Assembly (NCBI GenBank): GCA_043228905.1
Contig: JBHGNT010000005.1
Coordinates: forward strand, 12,958,001-13,022,000
Origin: Azolla caroliniana
Lineage: Eukaryota > Plantae > Polypodiophyta
Direction: 5' to 3'
Length of the DNA stretch: 64,000 bases
Each line of letters starts with the position of its first letter. The stretch's first letter is position 1. The position numbers and the translations under genes were made by a program. This document shows positions 17,503 through 46,733 of this stretch, piece after piece. Below the pieces are notes generated by a model that saw only the letters and a list, made by a program, of their open reading frames with translations, had not been told where the DNA came from and made no database searches.

Positions 17503-17667
17503 TCACACACACACACACACTATGTACACCCAGTGTTGCCTTTTGACGGCTAACATTGCCTGTCATGAGAACGGTATTCCAAAATTTTTGCCCGTCAAAT
17601 TAACGGTTTGTAAAAAAAAATGCCCTTCAAAAAGTAAATACATCGAATATTTGTACGAAACAATATA

Positions 17668-19953
17668 TTATATCCTTCTATCCTTTGCATCTTTCCAAAT
17701 TTCATGTACACGATCCCATTGTATTTCTTCAATGCGTGGCCCATTCAATGAGACTCGCATTAAATCATCTAAATGCTCTATATTCAATCGATTTCTTTTC
17801 ATCTCTTTGATGAGATTTTGCTTAGAGAACCCTCTCTCACACGAAACTGTGCTAGAAGGAATAACCAAAGTAGCTTGCCATAATTTCATCAAATGAGGGA
17901 AACTATCTTGCCAATCCTTCATTTTGCAAAACATACGCCAAGCTTCATGCATAGTATAGCCTTCACAATTTAAACGTAAAGTGTCAACAAACCTATAGAG
18001 TTCCATTTCACAAGCCTTTGCATCATGTGAAATTTGAGGACATGCATTGACATCAACATTTGGCTGTAAGTGAGAAATCAAAATTCCCAACCATGTCTTT
18101 GCTTTACTATCCCTAATCACATCATCATCTGCATAATGGCATGGGCTGAATAATTTTGCTGCATTGAAGAGGCTTAAGTCAGGGAATCTTGCATTTAGTC
18201 CATCAATAACATTTTGCACATAATTTTGAGATAGTTTAATACAACTTTCAAGTGATCCATCTATAAATGGCCTCATTCCCTTAGATTTTGCAATAGTGGG
18301 ATTTGGATCATTTTGACTTGCTTTATCCATAGGAATTTGTTTGAAGTATAGTTCATGTCTATATGTAACGCCATCTTTATCCTCTATTTCCAAAAACCCA
18401 ACTTTAGAACATCTTAAGAACTTGGATAAATACATTGTTCCATCCGCAAATGTGTCATTTCTCAAGAAAGACCTCCGCAAATTAGAAATTGTAATATCAA
18501 TTTCTGCACCAATTGAAGTTACATCCAAATTCTCTTTTTGAAGTTTCAAGCTCAAGATATTCATCAAATGCAACACATCAGCCATGATACAAAAGCAAAA
18601 TTGCACACTATAGATACAAGCTTTATTATACCACTCGTTTAAGTTCTCTTTCTTCCAAATAGTAAGTATTGCAAGCATTATACTCACTAGTCTTTCCATG
18701 ACTTGACCACGTGACAACCAACGAATATTATGAATTTGTAATGGTCTATGAGCATCCAATTGCATTTGTTCCAAGAGCTCTAAAATTTCATGTGTCCTTT
18801 TGGTACTATTGTTAGCCCATGTATATACCTTATTTGCAATTTTTTCTACAAGAATGAGCTCAGGGATATCTTTAGATACATCTAAAATAACCAATGCTTC
18901 TCTATGAGCAATACAATGTACACCAACCAAATTTGGGATATCATTTTTCATTAATGTTACTGTTCCAATTTCACTACCAATCATTGATGATGCACCATCA
19001 GTTGCCAATCCGATCAACTTGTTCATGTTGAGGCATCGATCGCCTAATAGATGCTTAACATGTTCATATATAGTTCTACCTTTACCATTGGGAATTTTCA
19101 GCAAACCCATATATTCAGTTTGCTTAGGCCCACAACCACCACATTGCAAATATGTAACATACATAATGAGATGCAACTCTAATCCATTGTCAGTACTTTC
19201 ATCTAGCATCAAAGAGTAGTATGGGGAATTTATTAGGTTTGAGCTTTGAATTTCTAGAAGATATTTCCCGAAGGCAACCAAAAATTCATATCCCCCATAT
19301 CTACTAGTATAAGATATATAATCATGTTGCTTAGGCATATTAGGCACCTCTAGTAGCACAGCCAAATCACATAATTCTTGGTATGTAGCGATAGACAAAT
19401 CTTTTTTTGCAATAAAGTACATGAGTTTCATTGTTGTTATGACCTTATTTTTGTTAATATCATCCAATTGTGATACATGCTTTGAGATGGACATTGCTTT
19501 CCCTTCAACATCACATATCCACTTTGATGCACATAATTTATGACCACTTGAGTTGACATGGGTCAAAATTGCATCAAGTTGCAAAGTAATGCATCTAGAA
19601 CCAAGACCCCAAGGCCCAGGACTAGCGTATTTCTCACACCATGCACATTTCATTAATGTTTTGTCTCCTTGCACAATGCATCTTATCCATGGGAATTTAT
19701 CTCTCCATGCTTCACGGAATTTTCTCTTAGGCTTTTCTTTAGTTATATTAGAGGAACAACTCTCTCGAGTTAAACTCTCTAAATCAGTCCCAAACATATC
19801 CATATCCTCATTTGAATCATTGTTTAGATTTATGTCATTGGTATCGTTGGGTGGTTTCCATGCAAACATCGCACTGATGGTTCGTTGGTTTTTTCTTTTA
19901 GGAGCCATAATTATTCTGAATAAGAAGAAATGGGTCATGTAAGAAAAGATCAT
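17668..19953 (-). CDS. hAT transposase, ZNF862-like (likely start MAPKRK at 19908)
   Basis: N-terminal Zn-finger-like FPWI..CAWC..H..H, LMLDESTD, LATDGAS, HCIAH, RWLS, SCERGFS dimerisation domain; uninterrupted 761-aa ORF. Confidence 0.93.
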   Translation of the reverse strand: MIFSYMTHFFLFRIIMAPKRKNQRTISAMFAWKPPNDTNDINLNNDSNEDMDMFGTDLESLTRESCSSNITKEKPKRKFREAWRDKFPWIRCIVQGDKTLMKCAWCEKYASPGPWGLGSRCITLQLDAILTHVNSSGHKLCASKWICDVEGKAMSISKHVSQLDDINKNKVITTMKLMYFIAKKDLSIATYQELCDLAVLLEVPNMPKQHDYISYTSRYGGYEFLVAFGKYLLEIQSSNLINSPYYSLMLDESTDNGLELHLIMYVTYLQCGGCGPKQTEYMGLLKIPNGKGRTIYEHVKHLLGDRCLNMNKLIGLATDGASSMIGSEIGTVTLMKNDIPNLVGVHCIAHREALVILDVSKDIPELILVEKIANKVYTWANNSTKRTHEILELLEQMQLDAHRPLQIHNIRWLSRGQVMERLVSIMLAILTIWKKENLNEWYNKACIYSVQFCFCIMADVLHLMNILSLKLQKENLDVTSIGAEIDITISNLRRSFLRNDTFADGTMYLSKFLRCSKVGFLEIEDKDGVTYRHELYFKQIPMDKASQNDPNPTIAKSKGMRPFIDGSLESCIKLSQNYVQNVIDGLNARFPDLSLFNAAKLFSPCHYADDDVIRDSKAKTWLGILISHLQPNVDVNACPQISHDAKACEMELYRFVDTLRLNCEGYTMHEAWRMFCKMKDWQDSFPHLMKLWQATLVIPSSTVSCERGFSKQNLIKEMKRNRLNIEHLDDLMRVSLNGPRIEEIQWDRVHEIWKDAKDRRI

Positions 19954-20590
19954 ACCATCAGTTCAAAACAATCACTAGCATCATTAAACCCATACATATT
20001 AGTTATGACCTATTGGGCAATGAGATTTTACATGAATATAATTCCCAAACTTTTGCCCTTAAAGAGGAGAGCAATACTAGTTTTGATGGACTAGTAAAAG
20101 AATTTGGTGGTATATCTACTTCATCTAGAACTCAACAACTAAAACCAATGAAAGCCTAGAAAAGGCGTGACAAGAGAGCAAACCAAGAAGCTAAGAGAGA
20201 ACAAAGAATTCAAGAAAAGCAAAACAATGTGGTGAGTGATCGGATGGTGGAAAACGAATTGCTTGAAGGAAAATAAATTGCTTGAAGGTGTATCATCCCA
20301 CACCATCAAGGAACCATAGGTGCAATCAAAAGAAGAAAACATGACACAAGTACGAGCAACATTCGTAGTTAACAAAAGCAACAATGATATTAGGCAAGCC
20401 ATTCTAAATTTCCGTAGAGGGAAATATAAGAATGATTTAGCCATTAATAGAGTCGGAAAATGCTCTGGCCATCAACGTTGGATATGTAGTAATTTCCTAA
20501 CCATAGGAAATAACTATTGATATGATGAGATGGATCATTGTTAAAAGTTGGGGATTTTTATTGATTTTTATTGAGACAATAAACATTAGT

Positions 20591-20611
20591 CTCTATTAAT
20601 CTAAAGTTCAT

Positions 20612-20653
<42 letters not shown>

Positions 20654-20768
20654 GCAGGCAGAAGAAGAAGAAGAAGAAGAAGAAGAAGAAGATCCTCTAT
20701 TATCTAAAGTTCATACCAGAGAGAGAGAGAGAGAGAGAGACGACACAGGTGGAAGAAGAAGAAGATCC
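20591..20768 (+). repeat. Two-copy tandem unit CTCTATT(A)ATCTAAAGTTCATACCAG(AG)n...(GAA)nGATCC
   Basis: Read directly; the second unit runs into RPS7. Confidence 0.85.
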
Positions 20769-21322
20769 ATAAGGAGAAAAGCCTCGAGCCTGATGATTTT
20801 GAAGAGTCTGTTGCACAGGCTCTCTTTGATCTCGAGAACACTAACCAGGAGCTAAGAAGTGACCTAAGGGATCTATTCATCAATTCTGCAAAGCAAATAG
20901 ATATCAATGGAAGCAGGAAGGCTGTCATAATCCATGTGCCATACAGACTGAGGAAATCTTTCAAGAAAATTCACAACCGTCTTGTCCGTGAACTTGAGAA
21001 GAAATTCAGTGGCAAGGATGTTATTTTCATTGCGACAAGGCGCATTATGAGGCCTCCCAAGAAGGGAACAGTTGTTGCTCGTCCTAGAAGCCGCACATTA
21101 ACATCTGTTCATGAGGCTATTCTTGAAGATTTAGTCTATCCAGCAGAGATTGTGGGAAAAAGAGTTCGTTTCCGTCTGGATGGTTCACGTATAATGCGAG
21201 TATATTTGGACCCCAAGGAGAGGAACAATACTGAGTATAAGTTAGAGACTTTTGGTGTTGCTTATAAGAAGCTAACTGGAAAAGAAGTAGTGTTCGAGTA
21301 CCCTGTACAGGAAGCTGCTTAA
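20759..21322 (+). pseudogene. RPS7: Captured intronless cytosolic 40S ribosomal protein S7 (eS7) coding sequence, lacking the ATG and first few codons
   Basis: [32 protein letters not shown]...VPYRLRKSF...[15 protein letters not shown]...[19 protein letters not shown]; 187 uninterrupted codons; in-frame TAA at 20705 upstream with no ATG between. Confidence 0.93.
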
Positions 21323-21575
21323 AGACGTTTTATCTTGGGATAGTTTTTGAGGTTTCAGTTTTTTTTTTACACTTTATGGTTTAAAATTCCTTTTGTAGGA
21401 ATTGAAGGTATCAATGGAGTCTTCATGTGTATGCTTATCCCCTGTAAGGATACATTAGAGACATCCTTTTTTCTGCAATCTATTTCTGGAAGTGAGGCAA
21501 ATATGAGCAGCATGCAAATATATTCATTAAGGATCCCATTGCTTCAATGAGGATGGTTTAGTCTATTTTAATCTT

Positions 21576-21625
<50 letters not shown>

Positions 21626-22315
21626 CTACCTTAGATGGGTGAACAGGACTGTTGTAGGAGATGTTGCTGAATCTATGAGTAGCAAGCAACGAGCAACAAG
21701 CTTCGAGTAGGGATAGTGAGCACTGAGTTGCGAGCTTCCAACAAGGTGCAGGGTTGAGGGAGCAACGAACAAACAGGGAAAATGGGGGAAAAGGGGGAAA
21801 AGGGGGGAAAAGGGAAAGGAAGGTCTTAGATGGGGAAACGGGGAATTGGGAAGTAAAGATTCATAATTTAGACTCTATTAGTTTTTTACCTTTTTGTTAC
21901 ACACATAGTGACATATGTGAGCCTTTCAAATTCCTACACTCCCAATGCAACTTGAACAATTTGTTCCTACTACCTAGGACTATACTACTATAGTATTGGT
22001 CTTAGTAAAATTTGACGGTATTATGAAATTTTAAGCCTTCATTTTTACGTTTTCATAAAACATATGCCCGTCAAGATTGACGGTTTCATTTTAAAATTAA
22101 CTTTCATATACGGTTAAATTTGCCAAAAACGTTCAAAACGGCCGTCAAAAGGCAACACTGTGTACACCATATACACCATATGTATATATAATATATCTAT
22201 GTACCGCGTATGGATTTCAATCATACTTGGAGCCTTTTCACGTATGAGTATGATACGAATATTGGCGTTTGAGTATGACACGAATGGGACGTATGGCTAG
22301 AACTATGACGTGCAC

Positions 22316-41689: not shown

Positions 41690-41854
41690 TCACACACACA
41701 CACACACTATGTACACCCAGTGTTGCCTTTTGACGGCTAACATTGCCTGTCATGAGAACGGTATTCCAAAATTTTTGCCCGTCAAATTAACGGTTTGTAA
41801 AAAAAAATGCCCTTCAAAAAGTAAATACATCGAATATTTGTACGAAACAATATA

Positions 41855-44140
41855 TTATATCCTTCTATCCTTTGCATCTTTCCAAATTTCATGTACACGA
41901 TCCCATTGTATTTCTTCAATGCGTGGCCCATTCAATGAGACTCGCATTAAATCATCTAAATGCTCTATATTCAATCGATTTCTTTTCATCTCTTTGATGA
42001 GATTTTGCTTAGAGAACCCTCTCTCACACGAAACTGTGCTAGAAGGAATAACCAAAGTAGCTTGCCATAATTTCATCAAATGAGGGAAACTATCTTGCCA
42101 ATCCTTCATTTTGCAAAACATACGCCAAGCTTCATGCATAGTATAGCCTTCACAATTTAAACGTAAAGTGTCAACAAACCTATAGAGTTCCATTTCACAA
42201 GCCTTTGCATCATGTGAAATTTGAGGACATGCATTGACATCAACATTTGGCTGTAAGTGAGAAATCAAAATTCCCAACCATGTCTTTGCTTTACTATCCC
42301 TAATCACATCATCATCTGCATAATGGCATGGGCTGAATAATTTTGCTGCATTGAAGAGGCTTAAGTCAGGGAATCTTGCATTTAGTCCATCAATAACATT
42401 TTGCACATAATTTTGAGATAGTTTAATACAACTTTCAAGTGATCCATCTATAAATGGCCTCATTCCCTTAGATTTTGCAATAGTGGGATTTGGATCATTT
42501 TGACTTGCTTTATCCATAGGAATTTGTTTGAAGTATAGTTCATGTCTATATGTAACGCCATCTTTATCCTCTATTTCCAAAAACCCAACTTTAGAACATC
42601 TTAAGAACTTGGATAAATACATTGTTCCATCCGCAAATGTGTCATTTCTCAAGAAAGACCTCCGCAAATTAGAAATTGTAATATCAATTTCTGCACCAAT
42701 TGAAGTTACATCCAAATTCTCTTTTTGAAGTTTCAAGCTCAAGATATTCATCAAATGCAACACATCAGCCATGATACAAAAGCAAAATTGCACACTATAG
42801 ATACAAGCTTTATTATACCACTCGTTTAAGTTCTCTTTCTTCCAAATAGTAAGTATTGCAAGCATTATACTCACTAGTCTTTCCATGACTTGACCACGTG
42901 ACAACCAACGAATATTATGAATTTGTAATGGTCTATGAGCATCCAATTGCATTTGTTCCAAGAGCTCTAAAATTTCATGTGTCCTTTTGGTACTATTGTT
43001 AGCCCATGTATATACCTTATTTGCAATTTTTTCTACAAGAATGAGCTCAGGGATATCTTTAGATACATCTGAAATAACCAATGCTTCTCTATGAGCAATA
43101 CAATGTACACCAACCAAATTTGGGATATCATTTTTCATTAATGTTACTGTTCCAATTTCACTACCAATCATTGATGATGCACCATCAGTTGCCAATCCGA
43201 TCAACTTGTTCATGTTGAGGCATCGATCGCCTAATAGATGCTTAACATGTTCATATATAGTTCTACCTTTACCATTGGGAATTTTCAGCAAACCCATATA
43301 TTCAGTTTGCTTAGGCCCACAACCACCACATTGCAAATATGTAACATACATAATGAGATGCAACTCTAATCCATTGTCAGTACTTTCATCTAGCATCAAA
43401 GAGTATTATGGGGAATTTATTAGGTTTGAGCTTTGAATTTCTAGAAGATATTTCCCGAAGGCAACCAAAAATTCATATCCCCCATATCTACTAGTATAAG
43501 ATATATAATCATGTTGCTTAGGCATATTAGGCACCTCTAGTAGCACAGCCAAATCACATAATTCTTGGTATGTAGCGATAGACAAATCTTTTTTTGCAAT
43601 AAAGTACATGAGTTTCATTGTTGTTATGACCTTATTTTTGTTAATATCATCCAATTGTGATACATGCTTTGAGATGGACATTGCTTTCCCTTCAACATCA
43701 CATATCCACTTTGATGCACATAATTTATGACCACTTGAGTTGACATGGGTCAAAATTGCATCAAGTTGCAAAGTAATGCATCTAGAACCAAGACCCCAAG
43801 GCCCAGGACTAGCGTATTTCTCACACCATGCACATTTCATTAATGTTTTGTCTCCTTGCACAATGCATCTTATCCATGGGAATTTATCTCTCCATGCTTC
43901 ACGGAATTTTCTCTTAGGCTTTTCTTTAGTTATATTAGAGAAACAACTCTCTCGAGTTAAACTCTCTAAATCAGTCCCAAACATATCCATATCCTCATTT
44001 GAATCATTGTTTAGATTTATGTCATTGGTATCGTTGGGTGGTTTCCATGCAAACATCGCACTGATGGTTCGTTGGTTTTTTCTTTTAGGAGCCATAATTA
44101 TTCTGAATAAGAAGAAATGGGTCATGTAAGAAAAGATCAT
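41855..44140 (-). pseudogene. hAT transposase copy 2 with premature stop
   Basis: TAC>TAA at 43406-43408 splits the ORF into 244 aa and 514 aa. Confidence 0.9.
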
Positions 44141-44798
44141 ACCATCAGTTCAAAACAATCACTAGCATCATTAAACCCATACATATTAGTTATGACCTAT
44201 TGGGCAATGAGATTTTACATGAATATAATTCCCAAACTTTTGCCCTTAAAGAGGAGAGCAATACTAGTTTTGATGGACTAGTAAAAGAATTTGGTGGTAT
44301 ATCTACTTCATCTAGAACTCAACAACTAAAACCAATGAAAGCCTAGAAAAGGCGTGACAAGAGAGCAAACCAAGAAGCTAAGAGAGAACAAAGAATTCAA
44401 GAAAAGCAAAACAATGTGGTGAGTGATCGGATGGTGGAAAACGAATTGCTTGAAGGAAAATAAATTGCTTGAAGGTGTATCATCCCACACCATCAAGGAA
44501 CCATAGGTGCAATCAAAAGAAGAAAACATGACACAAGTACGAGCAACATTCGTAGTTAACAAAAGCAACAATGATATTAGGCAAGCCATTCTAAATTTCC
44601 GTAGAGGGAAATATAAGAATGATTTAGCCATTAATAGAGTCGGAAAATGCTCTGGCCATCAACGTTGGATATGTAGTAATTTCCTAACCATAGGAAATAA
44701 CTATTGATATGATGAGATGGATCATTGTTAAAAGTTGGGGATTTTTATTGATTTTTATTGAGACAATAAACATTAGTCTCTATTAATCTAAAGTTCAT

Positions 44799-44836
<38 letters not shown>

Positions 44837-44947
44837 GCAGGCAGAAGAAGAAGAAGAAGAAGAAGAAGAAGAAGAAGAAGATCCTCTATTATCTAAAGTT
44901 CATACCAGAGAGAGAGAGAGAGAGAGAGACGACACAGGTGGAAGAAG

Positions 44948-45511
44948 AAGAAGATCCATAAGGAGAAAAGCCTCGAGCCTGATGATTTTGAAGAGTCTGT
45001 TGCACAGGCTCTCTTTGATCTCGAGAACACTAACCAGGAGCTAAGAAGTGACCTAAGGGATCTATTCATCAATTCTGCAAAGCAAATAGATATCAATGGA
45101 AGCAGGAAGGCTGTCATAATCCATGTGCCATACAGACTGAGGAAATCTTTCAAGAAAATTCACAACCGTCTTGTCCGTGAACTTGAGAAGAAATTCAGTG
45201 GCAAGGATGTTATTTTCATTGCGACAAGGCGCATTATGAGGCCTCCCAAGAAGGGAACAGTTGTTGCTCGTCCTAGAAGCCGCACATTAACATCTGTTCA
45301 TGAGGCTATTCTTGAAGATTTAGTCTATCCAGCAGAGATTGTGGGAAAAAGAGTTCGTTTCCGTCTGGATGGTTCACGTATAATGCGAGTATATTTGGAC
45401 CCCAAGGAGAGGAACAATACTGAGTATAAGTTAGAGACTTTTGGTGTTGCTTATAAGAAGCTAACTGGAAAAGAAGTAGTGTTCGAGTACCCTGTACAGG
45501 AAGCTGCTTAA
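44948..45511 (+). pseudogene. RPS7: Captured RPS7 (eS7), copy 2
   Basis: Same translation as 20759-21322. Confidence 0.92.
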
Positions 45512-45764
45512 AGACGTTTTATCTTGGGATAGTTTTTGAGGTTTCAGTTTTTTTTTTACACTTTATGGTTTAAAATTCCTTTTGTAGGAATTGAAGGTAT
45601 CAATGGAGTCTTCATGTGTATGCTTATCCCCTGTAAGGATACATTAGAGACATCCTTTTTTCTGCAATCTATTTCTGGAAGTGAGGCAAATATGAGCAGC
45701 ATGCAAATATATTCATTAAGGATCCCATTGCTTCAATGAGGATGGTTTAGTCTATTTTAATCTT

Positions 45765-45842
<78 letters not shown>

Positions 45843-46733
45843 CTACCTTAGATGGGTGAACAGGACTGTTGTAGGAGATGTTGCTGAATCTATGAGTAGC
45901 AAGCAGCGAGCAACAAGCTTCGAGTAGGGATAGTGAGCACTGAGTTGCGAGCTTCCAACAAGGTGCAGGGTTGAGGGAGCAACGAACAAACAGGGAAAAT
46001 GGGGGAAAAGGGGGAAAAGGGGGGAAAAGGGAAAGGAAGGTCTTAGATGGGGAAACGGGGAATTGGGAAGTAAAGATTCATAATTTAGACTCTATTAGTT
46101 TTTTACCTTTTTGTTACACACATAGTGACATATGTGAGCCTTTCAAATTCCTACACTCCCAATGCAACTTGAACAATTTGTTCCTACTACCTAGGACTAT
46201 ACTACTATAGTATTGGTCTTAGTAAAATTTGACGGTATTATGAAATTTTAAGCCTTCATTTTTACGTTTTCATAAAACATATGCCCGTCAAGATTGACGG
46301 TTTCATTTTAAAATTAACTTTCATATACGGTTAAATTTGCCAAAAACGTTCAAAACGGCCGTCAAAAGGCAACACTGTGTACACCATATACACCATATGT
46401 ATATATAATATATCTATGTACCGCGTATGGATTTTAATCATACTTGGAGCCTTTTCACGTATGAGTATGATACGAATATTGGCGTTTGAGTATGACACGA
46501 ATGGGACGTATGGCTAGAACTATGACGTGCACGCACATAAATAAATTAGATATTACATAGCATATATTACACAATATTCAAATTTACACATACATAAATT
46601 ACATATATACATATATAGATACATACATAGATATACATATTACATATGTACATACATATTCCACATATCACCATATATATATGTATAGATTATACTGGAC
46701 CATACAAACCAGAATACTTATATATATACATAC

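Follow-up and report, generated by a model that had tools for sequence, protein, structure and literature searches.

The window analysed here is a stretch of 64,000 nucleotides from Azolla caroliniana (assembly GCA_043228905.1, contig JBHGNT010000005.1, positions 12,958,001 to 13,022,000 of the forward strand), and its subject is a hAT transposon at 17531-22160, here called W1, in which a processed copy of the ribosomal protein gene RPS7 lies next to a transposase gene (Table 1). W1 was found to belong to a single hAT lineage with a single slot in which several host cargos have replaced one another, RPS7 being merely one of them. The RPS7 cargo was probably acquired by gap repair on an RNA or cDNA template inside an ancestor carrying RPL21, with joins at microhomologies, followed by transposition of an element that may have stayed autonomous because its slot probably lies in an intron. 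A second copy in the window, at 41718-46377, is called W2; L-numbers denote other genomic stretches that were fetched and C-numbers denote contigs.

The coding part of the RPS7 cargo (20759-21319) comprises 187 codons without a stop and was matched by Pfam Ribosomal_S7e with an E value of 1.5e-78. Searches of the genome at the DNA and Pfam level gave a single RPS7 gene with introns (C20, L022), seven copies without introns, all of them inside elements, and a retrocopy without terminal inverted repeats (TIRs), present on two contigs (L020 and L021). The intron-containing gene, the parent, has four introns of 1409, 77, 661 and 191 nt, all GT-AG, and all four are absent from the cargo at the exact junctions. 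An intronless parent is thus ruled out. A one-off insertion is ruled out by the six distinct target site duplications (TSDs) at which the seven RPS7 elements lie, and a second resident RPS7 paralogue that could have been the donor was found in neither the DNA nor the Pfam searches, for which all 15 of 15 candidates were scored. An initial annotation of the window had described perfect 20-bp TIRs, an uninterrupted transposase and 187 stop-free codons of eS7 without introns or poly(A), and all of this was confirmed, as were a parent with introns on alignment to the host gene and copies at independent TSDs. Of the approximately 250 bp it had taken for a 3' untranslated region (3'UTR), 225 nt (21323-21547) are from RPS7, while roughly the next 33 nt are left over from the RPL21 3'UTR. 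Its proposal that a spliced mRNA or cDNA had been captured by a transposon which kept its transposase agrees with the spliced copy and the full-length transposase, but overlooked that this is one of several swapped cargos.

The content of the slot, which lies between the transposase and the right end, differs by subfamily. Besides RPS7 (7 copies; all counts are lower bounds), it was found to hold ubiquitin-RPS27a (12 copies, 8 of which, L044-L051, are short derivatives without transposase), a Q/G/Y-rich last exon with its 3'UTR that crosses no intron (8 copies), RPL21 (4 copies), an OTU deubiquitinase (4 copies; L039, L040, L079 and L095), a piece of FCF1 (2 copies) and a piece to which no source was assigned (2 copies). 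The 790-nt intron of the RPS27a parent and the 1198-nt intron of the RPL21 parent, both GT-AG, were each removed exactly from the corresponding cargo (1 of 1 in both cases). The OTU cargo reads on in frame across the acceptor site of its parent and, judging from this frame, is likely spliced; its host gene (L094) carries the Pfam OTU domain, and a peptide spanning the junction gave a weak match to yeast OTU2 in PDB (E 0.19). The FCF1 piece (PDB match, E 1.4e-10) keeps intron sequence over 760 nt and is oriented opposite to the other cargos. Neither this piece nor the Q/G/Y-rich one was matched by Pfam. Three other cargo pieces show gaps relative to their sources, of 203, 204 and 120 nt; none of these gaps is GT-AG, and they were left out of the intron-loss count.

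Rooted on L041, the tree built from the transposase halves of 25 copies (with L056 left out and L040 cut at an insertion) was ladder-like, in the order OTU, FCF1, RPL21, RPS27a, and then RPS7 and Q/G/Y together. Transposase distances to the RPS7 group were 0.6% for Q/G/Y, 2.0% for RPS27a, 2.4% for RPL21, 3.8% for FCF1, 4.3% for OTU and 7.2% for L041, and divergence within subfamilies was 0.2-0.8%. The FCF1 subfamily retains the RPL21 3'UTR tail, so the capture of RPL21 preceded that of FCF1. Along one master lineage the order of capture would have been OTU, RPL21, then FCF1, RPS27a, RPS7 and Q/G/Y-rich.

For the junction analysis, the RPL21 element was used as recipient and the spliced RPS7 parent as donor. 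RPS7 sequence of 774 nt was found to stand in place of 642 nt of RPL21 and to be flanked by RPL21 remnants, derived from the 5' untranslated region (5'UTR) on one side and from the 3'UTR on the other. Microhomology amounts to 9 nt at the 5' junction and 6 nt at the 3' junction; over 1,714,920 random pairs of recipient and donor positions, the probability was 6.6e-5 for at least 9 nt and 2.3e-3 for at least 6 nt. Since the 5' junction lies within codons 6-8, the ATG was lost. No poly(A), no TSD and no flanking genomic DNA of the parent were found alongside the cargo. Of the marks of a copy made by a long interspersed nuclear element (LINE), intron loss is present, whereas poly(A) and a flanking TSD are absent and recipient sequence is replaced. 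The marks of reverse-transcriptase-product-mediated double-strand-break repair (RMDR), namely a processed and truncated mRNA, microhomology at each end and no TSD, are all present. RPS7 was read at a depth of about 1400-2100, compared with about 30-50 for OTU, in runs X10 and X11, which like all eight runs used come from related organisms, and three of the cargos are copies of ribosomal protein mRNAs, a class of abundant transcripts. In the proposed course of events, a break would have arisen inside the RPL21-carrying ancestor, as an excision gap or at microsatellite tracts, and would have been repaired on RPS7 mRNA or its cDNA, presumably with a borrowed reverse transcriptase. The short microhomologies would have joined the RPS7 template to the recipient, and the RPS7-carrying element would then have been copied to new sites.

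The entire slot falls within a predicted 5'UTR intron of the transposase gene, with the acceptor 7 nt before the transposase ATG and the donor just before the dinucleotide tract. The cargo would be spliced out of the transposase transcript together with this intron, so that the element stays autonomous. It seems slightly more probable than otherwise that autonomy was preserved in this way. A few stranded minus-strand reads were found over 21725-22160 in related organisms (depth at most 3.5), and almost no reads from the transposase were found in the eight runs, a result that does not bear on expression in the present genome.

Several observations weigh against capture from RNA and against the role of the intron. 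Unspliced DNA was also captured in the family (FCF1 with its intron; L058/L037), so DNA-templated repair does operate there and could have copied a retrocopy that is now lost. The independent retrocopy L020/L021 and the RPS7 cargo have their last base in common; this shared end may be a poly(A) site, or it may point to a retrocopy as the donor, and 76 reads in X10 extend past it. The synonymous divergence (dS) between cargo and parent, 0.07-0.19, is more than the transposase tree predicts, and the resident genes are therefore not the exact donors. The first exon of the OTU parent was not found in approximately 35 kb upstream. As to the intron, five mRNA-like cargos lie antisense to the transposase and FCF1 lies sense, a sample too small for an orientation bias, no spliced read across the predicted intron was found in the eight runs, and the predicted acceptor is mutated in two old copies.

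An alternative is ordinary gap repair with switching of templates, as in Pack-TIR gap filling, in which genomic retrocopies already present would have served as DNA template and no RNA template would have been used at the element. This was judged unlikely. Intron-retaining genomic capture did occur in the same family with FCF1, genomic retrocopies exist for both RPS7 (L020/L021, with the shared end base) and RPS27a (L084), and gap filling typically shows microhomology, according to the accessible text of PMC8277862. L020/L021 itself was rejected as donor, because the cargo's first 48 nt are missing from it, it carries a 19-nt deletion and it differs from the cargo by 5.2-6.0%, compared with 4.0-4.7% for the parent. 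Furthermore, no TIR-less retrocopy spanning a whole cargo was found in the genome for RPS7, RPS27a or RPL21, and the cargos brought with them neither poly(A) nor a TSD nor DNA of an insertion site. For genomic templates so rare, three or four processed cargos out of about ten captured pieces would also be many. L020/L021 (L020:5001-5715; C694 and C11) is 5'-truncated and ends in (AG)n in place of poly(A); it sits within an intron of a candidate gene which, from its motifs, we take to be ankyrin/TPR-like. The ubiquitin-RPS27a copy outside elements (L084:4442-4787; C4) is intronless and 3'-truncated, with a direct repeat of about 18 nt at its two sides.

It is very improbable that the RPS7 mRNA was put into the element by target-primed retroposition of the LINE type, as in the bat Helitron retrogenes. 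The 5' truncation of the cargo would fit, the RPL21, RPS27a and OTU cargos and the free retrocopy L020/L021 all end at (AG)n, and LINE-like fragments are located at (AG)n tracts. For RPS7, however, this origin is contradicted by the replacement structure, in which 642 nt of the recipient are gone and poly(A) and TSD are lacking, whereas the bat cases, as far as the accessible text goes, carry both (PMC4224331). LINE-type retroposition is possible for the cargos which end at (AG)n.

The RPS7 copies are likely pseudogenes, because they have no start codon and drift neutrally. The first five codons including the ATG are absent, and no upstream in-frame ATG was found in any of the six independent copies. 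Variants among the copies comprise 15 nonsynonymous and 2 synonymous changes, which fits the neutral expected share of 0.73 (p=0.27), and a nonsynonymous to synonymous rate ratio (dN/dS) of 0.2 was rejected (p=1e-5). The fixed differences between parent and cargo are 10 synonymous and 5 nonsynonymous (dN/dS 0.14-0.19), and the contrast between fixed and segregating changes was significant at p=0.003. For RPS27a, 18 synonymous and 3 nonsynonymous differences to the parent are fixed (dS 0.15-0.19, dN 0.009), so its donor was another allele or paralogue than the resident parent. Within the family, 18 nonsynonymous (two stops among them) and 12 synonymous RPS27a variants were found, giving a dN/dS of 0.54, below neutral; the ATG and the full 154-codon frame are retained in 4 of 10 copies (L031, L032, L046 and L047). 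From the low fixed dN/dS of RPS7 and RPS27a it follows that most of the distance between cargo and parent accrued in a working gene and not in the element; the bulk of it predates life inside the element, the donor being functional. The RPS7 cargo therefore shows neither of the marks of a functional retrogene, a start codon and purifying selection among copies. The dN/dS comparison of cargo and parent that the initial annotation had proposed gives a low value, but the neutral variation among the copies speaks against function; its idea that near-full-length RPS7 copies could spread holds for the six TSDs and is not supported if useful genes are meant. That RPS7 is a working accessory gene under selection for the element or the host is hardly credible: the 187-codon frame does stay open in all six independent copies and the parent-cargo dN/dS is low, but besides the missing start codon and the neutral copies, RPS7 was dropped by the youngest subfamily, reads of related organisms show the letters of the host gene and not of the cargo at diagnostic sites such as 20906-7, and a functional donor allele unlike the resident gene would account for the low fixed dN/dS.

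The RPS7 and OTU cargos are closer to the genes of another lineage, represented by runs X2, X4 and X5 of study P2, than to the resident genes. Contigs of these runs and the resident gene were compared with the cargo over the same intervals. The X2 contig differed from the cargo by 9 substitutions over 21112-21547, compared with 23 for the resident gene; the other comparisons gave 6 vs 22 and 10 vs 14 (X4), 3 vs 13, 6 vs 12 and 3 vs 5 (X5), and 4 vs 7 and 5 vs 5 (X2). At 21074, 21327, 21434 and 21488 in RPS7, and at 20075, 20120 and 20255 in the OTU remnant, the element has the P2 letter and the resident gene has the letter of X10-X12. Sites of the opposite kind, where the cargo agrees with X10-X12 and the resident gene with P2, were absent among the best 40 of 401 and the best 40 of 207 rows. 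The simplest reading of these sequences would be that capture took place in a sister lineage and that hybridisation or transfer (introgression) brought the element in later; old polymorphism or lost paralogues are a possible explanation as well. In X1, a run which is probably DNA from another organism, contigs covered the transposase at a depth of 26-72 and RPS7 at 6-9, and although depth is not copy number, this suggests that the family is present in the X1 organism but carries no amplified RPS7 cargo there. A second, more distant RPS7 paralogue is expressed in X2, X4, X5 and X10-X12 (57 differences in 373 nt in X4); it was not found in the present assembly by DNA and Pfam searches.

W1 has both the short TIR (20 bp) and the 8-bp TSD of a hAT element. 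A genome search with the TIR pattern gave 82 exact matches, compared with none for the reversed control, and in the stretches fetched a perfect 8-bp TSD was found at 36 of 45 TIR pairs, with at most one mismatch at 40 of 45. The two copies in the window are not two insertions. They share the TSD and lie in a 24-kb near-identical duplicate (14162-38251 and 38352-62464, 99.4-99.8%) flanking a gap of 100 N, and were therefore counted as one; the duplicate is either an uncollapsed haplotype overlap or a recent tandem duplication. In their first 2470 nt, W1 and W2 differ at three sites, one of which is the stop in the W2 transposase. No host source of the right-end segment was found among the 40 of 44 candidates scored, those fetched being element copies.

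The transposase was matched by Pfam zf-C17orf113 (E 1.9e-9) and Dimer_Tnp_hAT PF05699 (E 5.6e-7), and weakly by the Hermes structures 4D1Q and 2BW3 (E 0.065). Among the matches listed, the nearest named homologues are the fern proteins of Adiantum (59%) and Ceratopteris (44%), which by themselves suggest a fern host. In an alignment of 18 sequences, consisting of the W1 transposase and 17 homologues picked from 120 listed, D236, D304, C332, H335 and E691 were invariant and R396 and W397 nearly so; W1 has the C332-x2-H335 spacing and the adjacent R396-W397. We take D236, D304 and E691 to be the catalytic D-D-E residues, C332 and H335 the CxxH motif and R396-W397 the RW motif. The 746-aa frame is intact in three of the seven RPS7 copies, W1, L015 and L018 (the last with W68R and R400C), and broken in W2, L016, L017 and L019; it is intact in 8 of 9 Q/G/Y-type copies and in none of the three RPS27a copies tested. 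By its intact reading frame, and in this respect only as first annotated, W1 is potentially autonomous.

Table 1. Features of W1, its second copy W2 and their flanks; positions are those of the window.
Feature	Position	Strand	Remarks
Left TSD, 8 bp, TGTACACC	17523..17530	+	Same letters as 22161-22168
Left TIR, 20 bp, transposase 3' side	17531..17550	+	Perfect reverse complement of 22141-22160
hAT transposase, 746 aa, no interruption	ATG 19908 to stop 17668	-	Open reading frame and Pfam
Predicted 5'UTR intron of transposase gene, 1714 nt, covering the entire cargo slot	19916..21629	-	GT donor 21629, polypyrimidine-CAG acceptor 19916
OTU deubiquitinase remnant, 213 nt, earlier cargo	20060..20272	+	Matches OTU cargos L039/L040/L079/L095 and host gene L094
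Older captured segment, no source assigned	20284..20536		Also in L038/L040; matching contigs of runs X2-X5 continue into other sequence
Repeated (AG)n/(GAA)n units, partly from RPL21 5'UTR	20651..20767	+	32-nt match, 94%, to RPL21 parent 5'UTR
Processed RPS7 copy: codons 6-192, stop 21320-21322, 225 nt 3'UTR	20759..21547	+	9-nt and 6-nt microhomologies at ends
RPL21 3'UTR remnant, earlier cargo	21542..21574	+	33 nt, 97% to RPL21 parent, E 1.7e-12
(AC)n tract	21578..21624	+	Other subfamilies have (AG)n at this place, and their RPL21, RPS27a and OTU cargos end there
Right-end segment, predicted to be the transposase gene's promoter plus non-coding exon 1	21630..22140	-	Common to all cargo-bearing subfamilies
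Right TIR, 20 bp	22141..22160	-	Perfect over exactly 20 bp against 17531-17550
Right TSD, 8 bp, TGTACACC	22161..22168	+	Same as left TSD 17523-17530
W2, second copy of the same insertion	41718..46377	+	TSD identical to W1; transposase stop at codon 230

Other copies of the family showed rearrangements of their own. L016 has a duplication of approximately 290 nt inside the transposase gene, the short derivatives L046 and L047 have a 76-nt duplication, and the right end of L033 is inverted and truncated. Other DNA is nested in L036/L037, L034/L035 and L088, namely an LTR (long terminal repeat) retrotransposon in the FCF1-type copy on C14 and large inserts in copies on C17 and C12. L039 contains a LINE-like fragment at its (AG)n tract. 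Further captured pieces, with matches of 78-90% elsewhere (C3, C6 and C1) and no source assigned, were seen in L023 (2580-3190 and 4240-4540), L030 (2630-3120) and L056 (6700-7660; element coordinates).

Elements of this kind, hATs with a transcript-derived housekeeping cargo, are already known, and the present case adds a land plant as host, a slot whose cargo was replaced repeatedly, and junctions that can be read. The comparisons which follow go by the accessible parts of the cited papers. hAT elements with an intronless histone H3 gene were described in Pseudocercospora fijiensis and its relatives and in Pyrenophora tritici-repentis, and the authors concluded that a transcript or a retrocopy had been captured (PMC6710886). 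W1 shares with them the hAT domain, the 20-bp TIR, the 8-bp TSD, and an amplified intronless housekeeping cargo with exon-exon junctions and mostly dead copies. The fungal elements carry one cargo gene and no junction analysis was seen in that text, whereas in the Azolla family at least three spliced cargos have replaced one another in one slot, the ancestral recipient can be read, and young copies have an intact transposase (PMC6710886). Bat Helitrons contain nested retrogenes such as RPLP0 with poly(A) and TSDs, and resemble the present family in that a DNA transposon multiplies intronless mRNA copies, including that of a ribosomal protein, captured in sequence; they are rolling-circle elements for which no intact autonomous element is reported in the accessible text, and in W1 RPS7 instead replaces sequence by microhomology (PMC4224331). 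Hatvine-6 of grapevine is likewise a plant hAT family with common transposase and TIRs and a variable host-derived region, but its cargo is described as genomic, with introns, exons and non-genic DNA, and spliced cargo is not mentioned in the part of the paper available (PMC2528002).

With Pack-TYPE and Pack-TIR elements the family shares host gene pieces between TIRs, breakpoint microhomology and multiple copies (PMC8903248, PMC8277862). Pack-TYPE elements, including Pack-hAT, are defined as non-autonomous (PMC8903248). W1 has a host fragment between its TIRs but also a transposase, which only the eight short RPS27a derivatives L044-L051 lack, and genomic cargo with introns is found in the FCF1 subfamily and not in RPS7, where all four are lost. 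packFinder classes elements with a transposase match as autonomous (PMC8903248), and the pipeline for animal Pack-TIR elements drops intronless copies of multi-exon genes (PMC8277862); a case of the W1 type would therefore be missed by both. RMDR was described for processed mRNA at Cas9 breaks in mouse zygotes, and W1 resembles it in the processed and truncated mRNA at a break, the one or two microhomologies and the lack of a TSD; the breaks in the mouse cells were experimental, whereas W1 received its cargo in a transposon interior and the product was then mobilised (PMC4516963). A 2026 review of plant gene capture leaves room for an undiscovered route of unlinked genes into DNA transposons, and a search of its accessible text did not return the words 'hAT', 'intron' or 'mRNA' (PMC13317346). 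In the literature searched, which includes subscription journals only in part, neither a plant hAT with a spliced cargo nor a case of serial replacement was found.

How TIR transposons acquire unlinked host genes is described as a question still open in the accessible parts of PMC13317346 and PMC8277862. In the present case the recipient, the donor and the product are all legible and indicate RNA-templated repair as one of the routes; since the family is young, its transposase frames are intact and captures came in series, this route is testable. It may tentatively be proposed that an autonomous plant hAT acted as a serial sampler of mRNA, its 5'UTR-intron slot being overwritten repeatedly by abundant reverse-transcribed mRNAs, through repair guided by microhomology and without harm to transposition, and carried in the gene copies of a sister lineage. 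If true, this would be a repeatable RNA route to gene capture for TIR transposons, filtered out by current Pack-element pipelines. For the genome itself, counts of ribosomal protein genes are inflated by cargo, by 6-7 copies of RPS7 and 12 of ubiquitin-RPS27a, and the cargo may preserve a record of past gene flow between related species.

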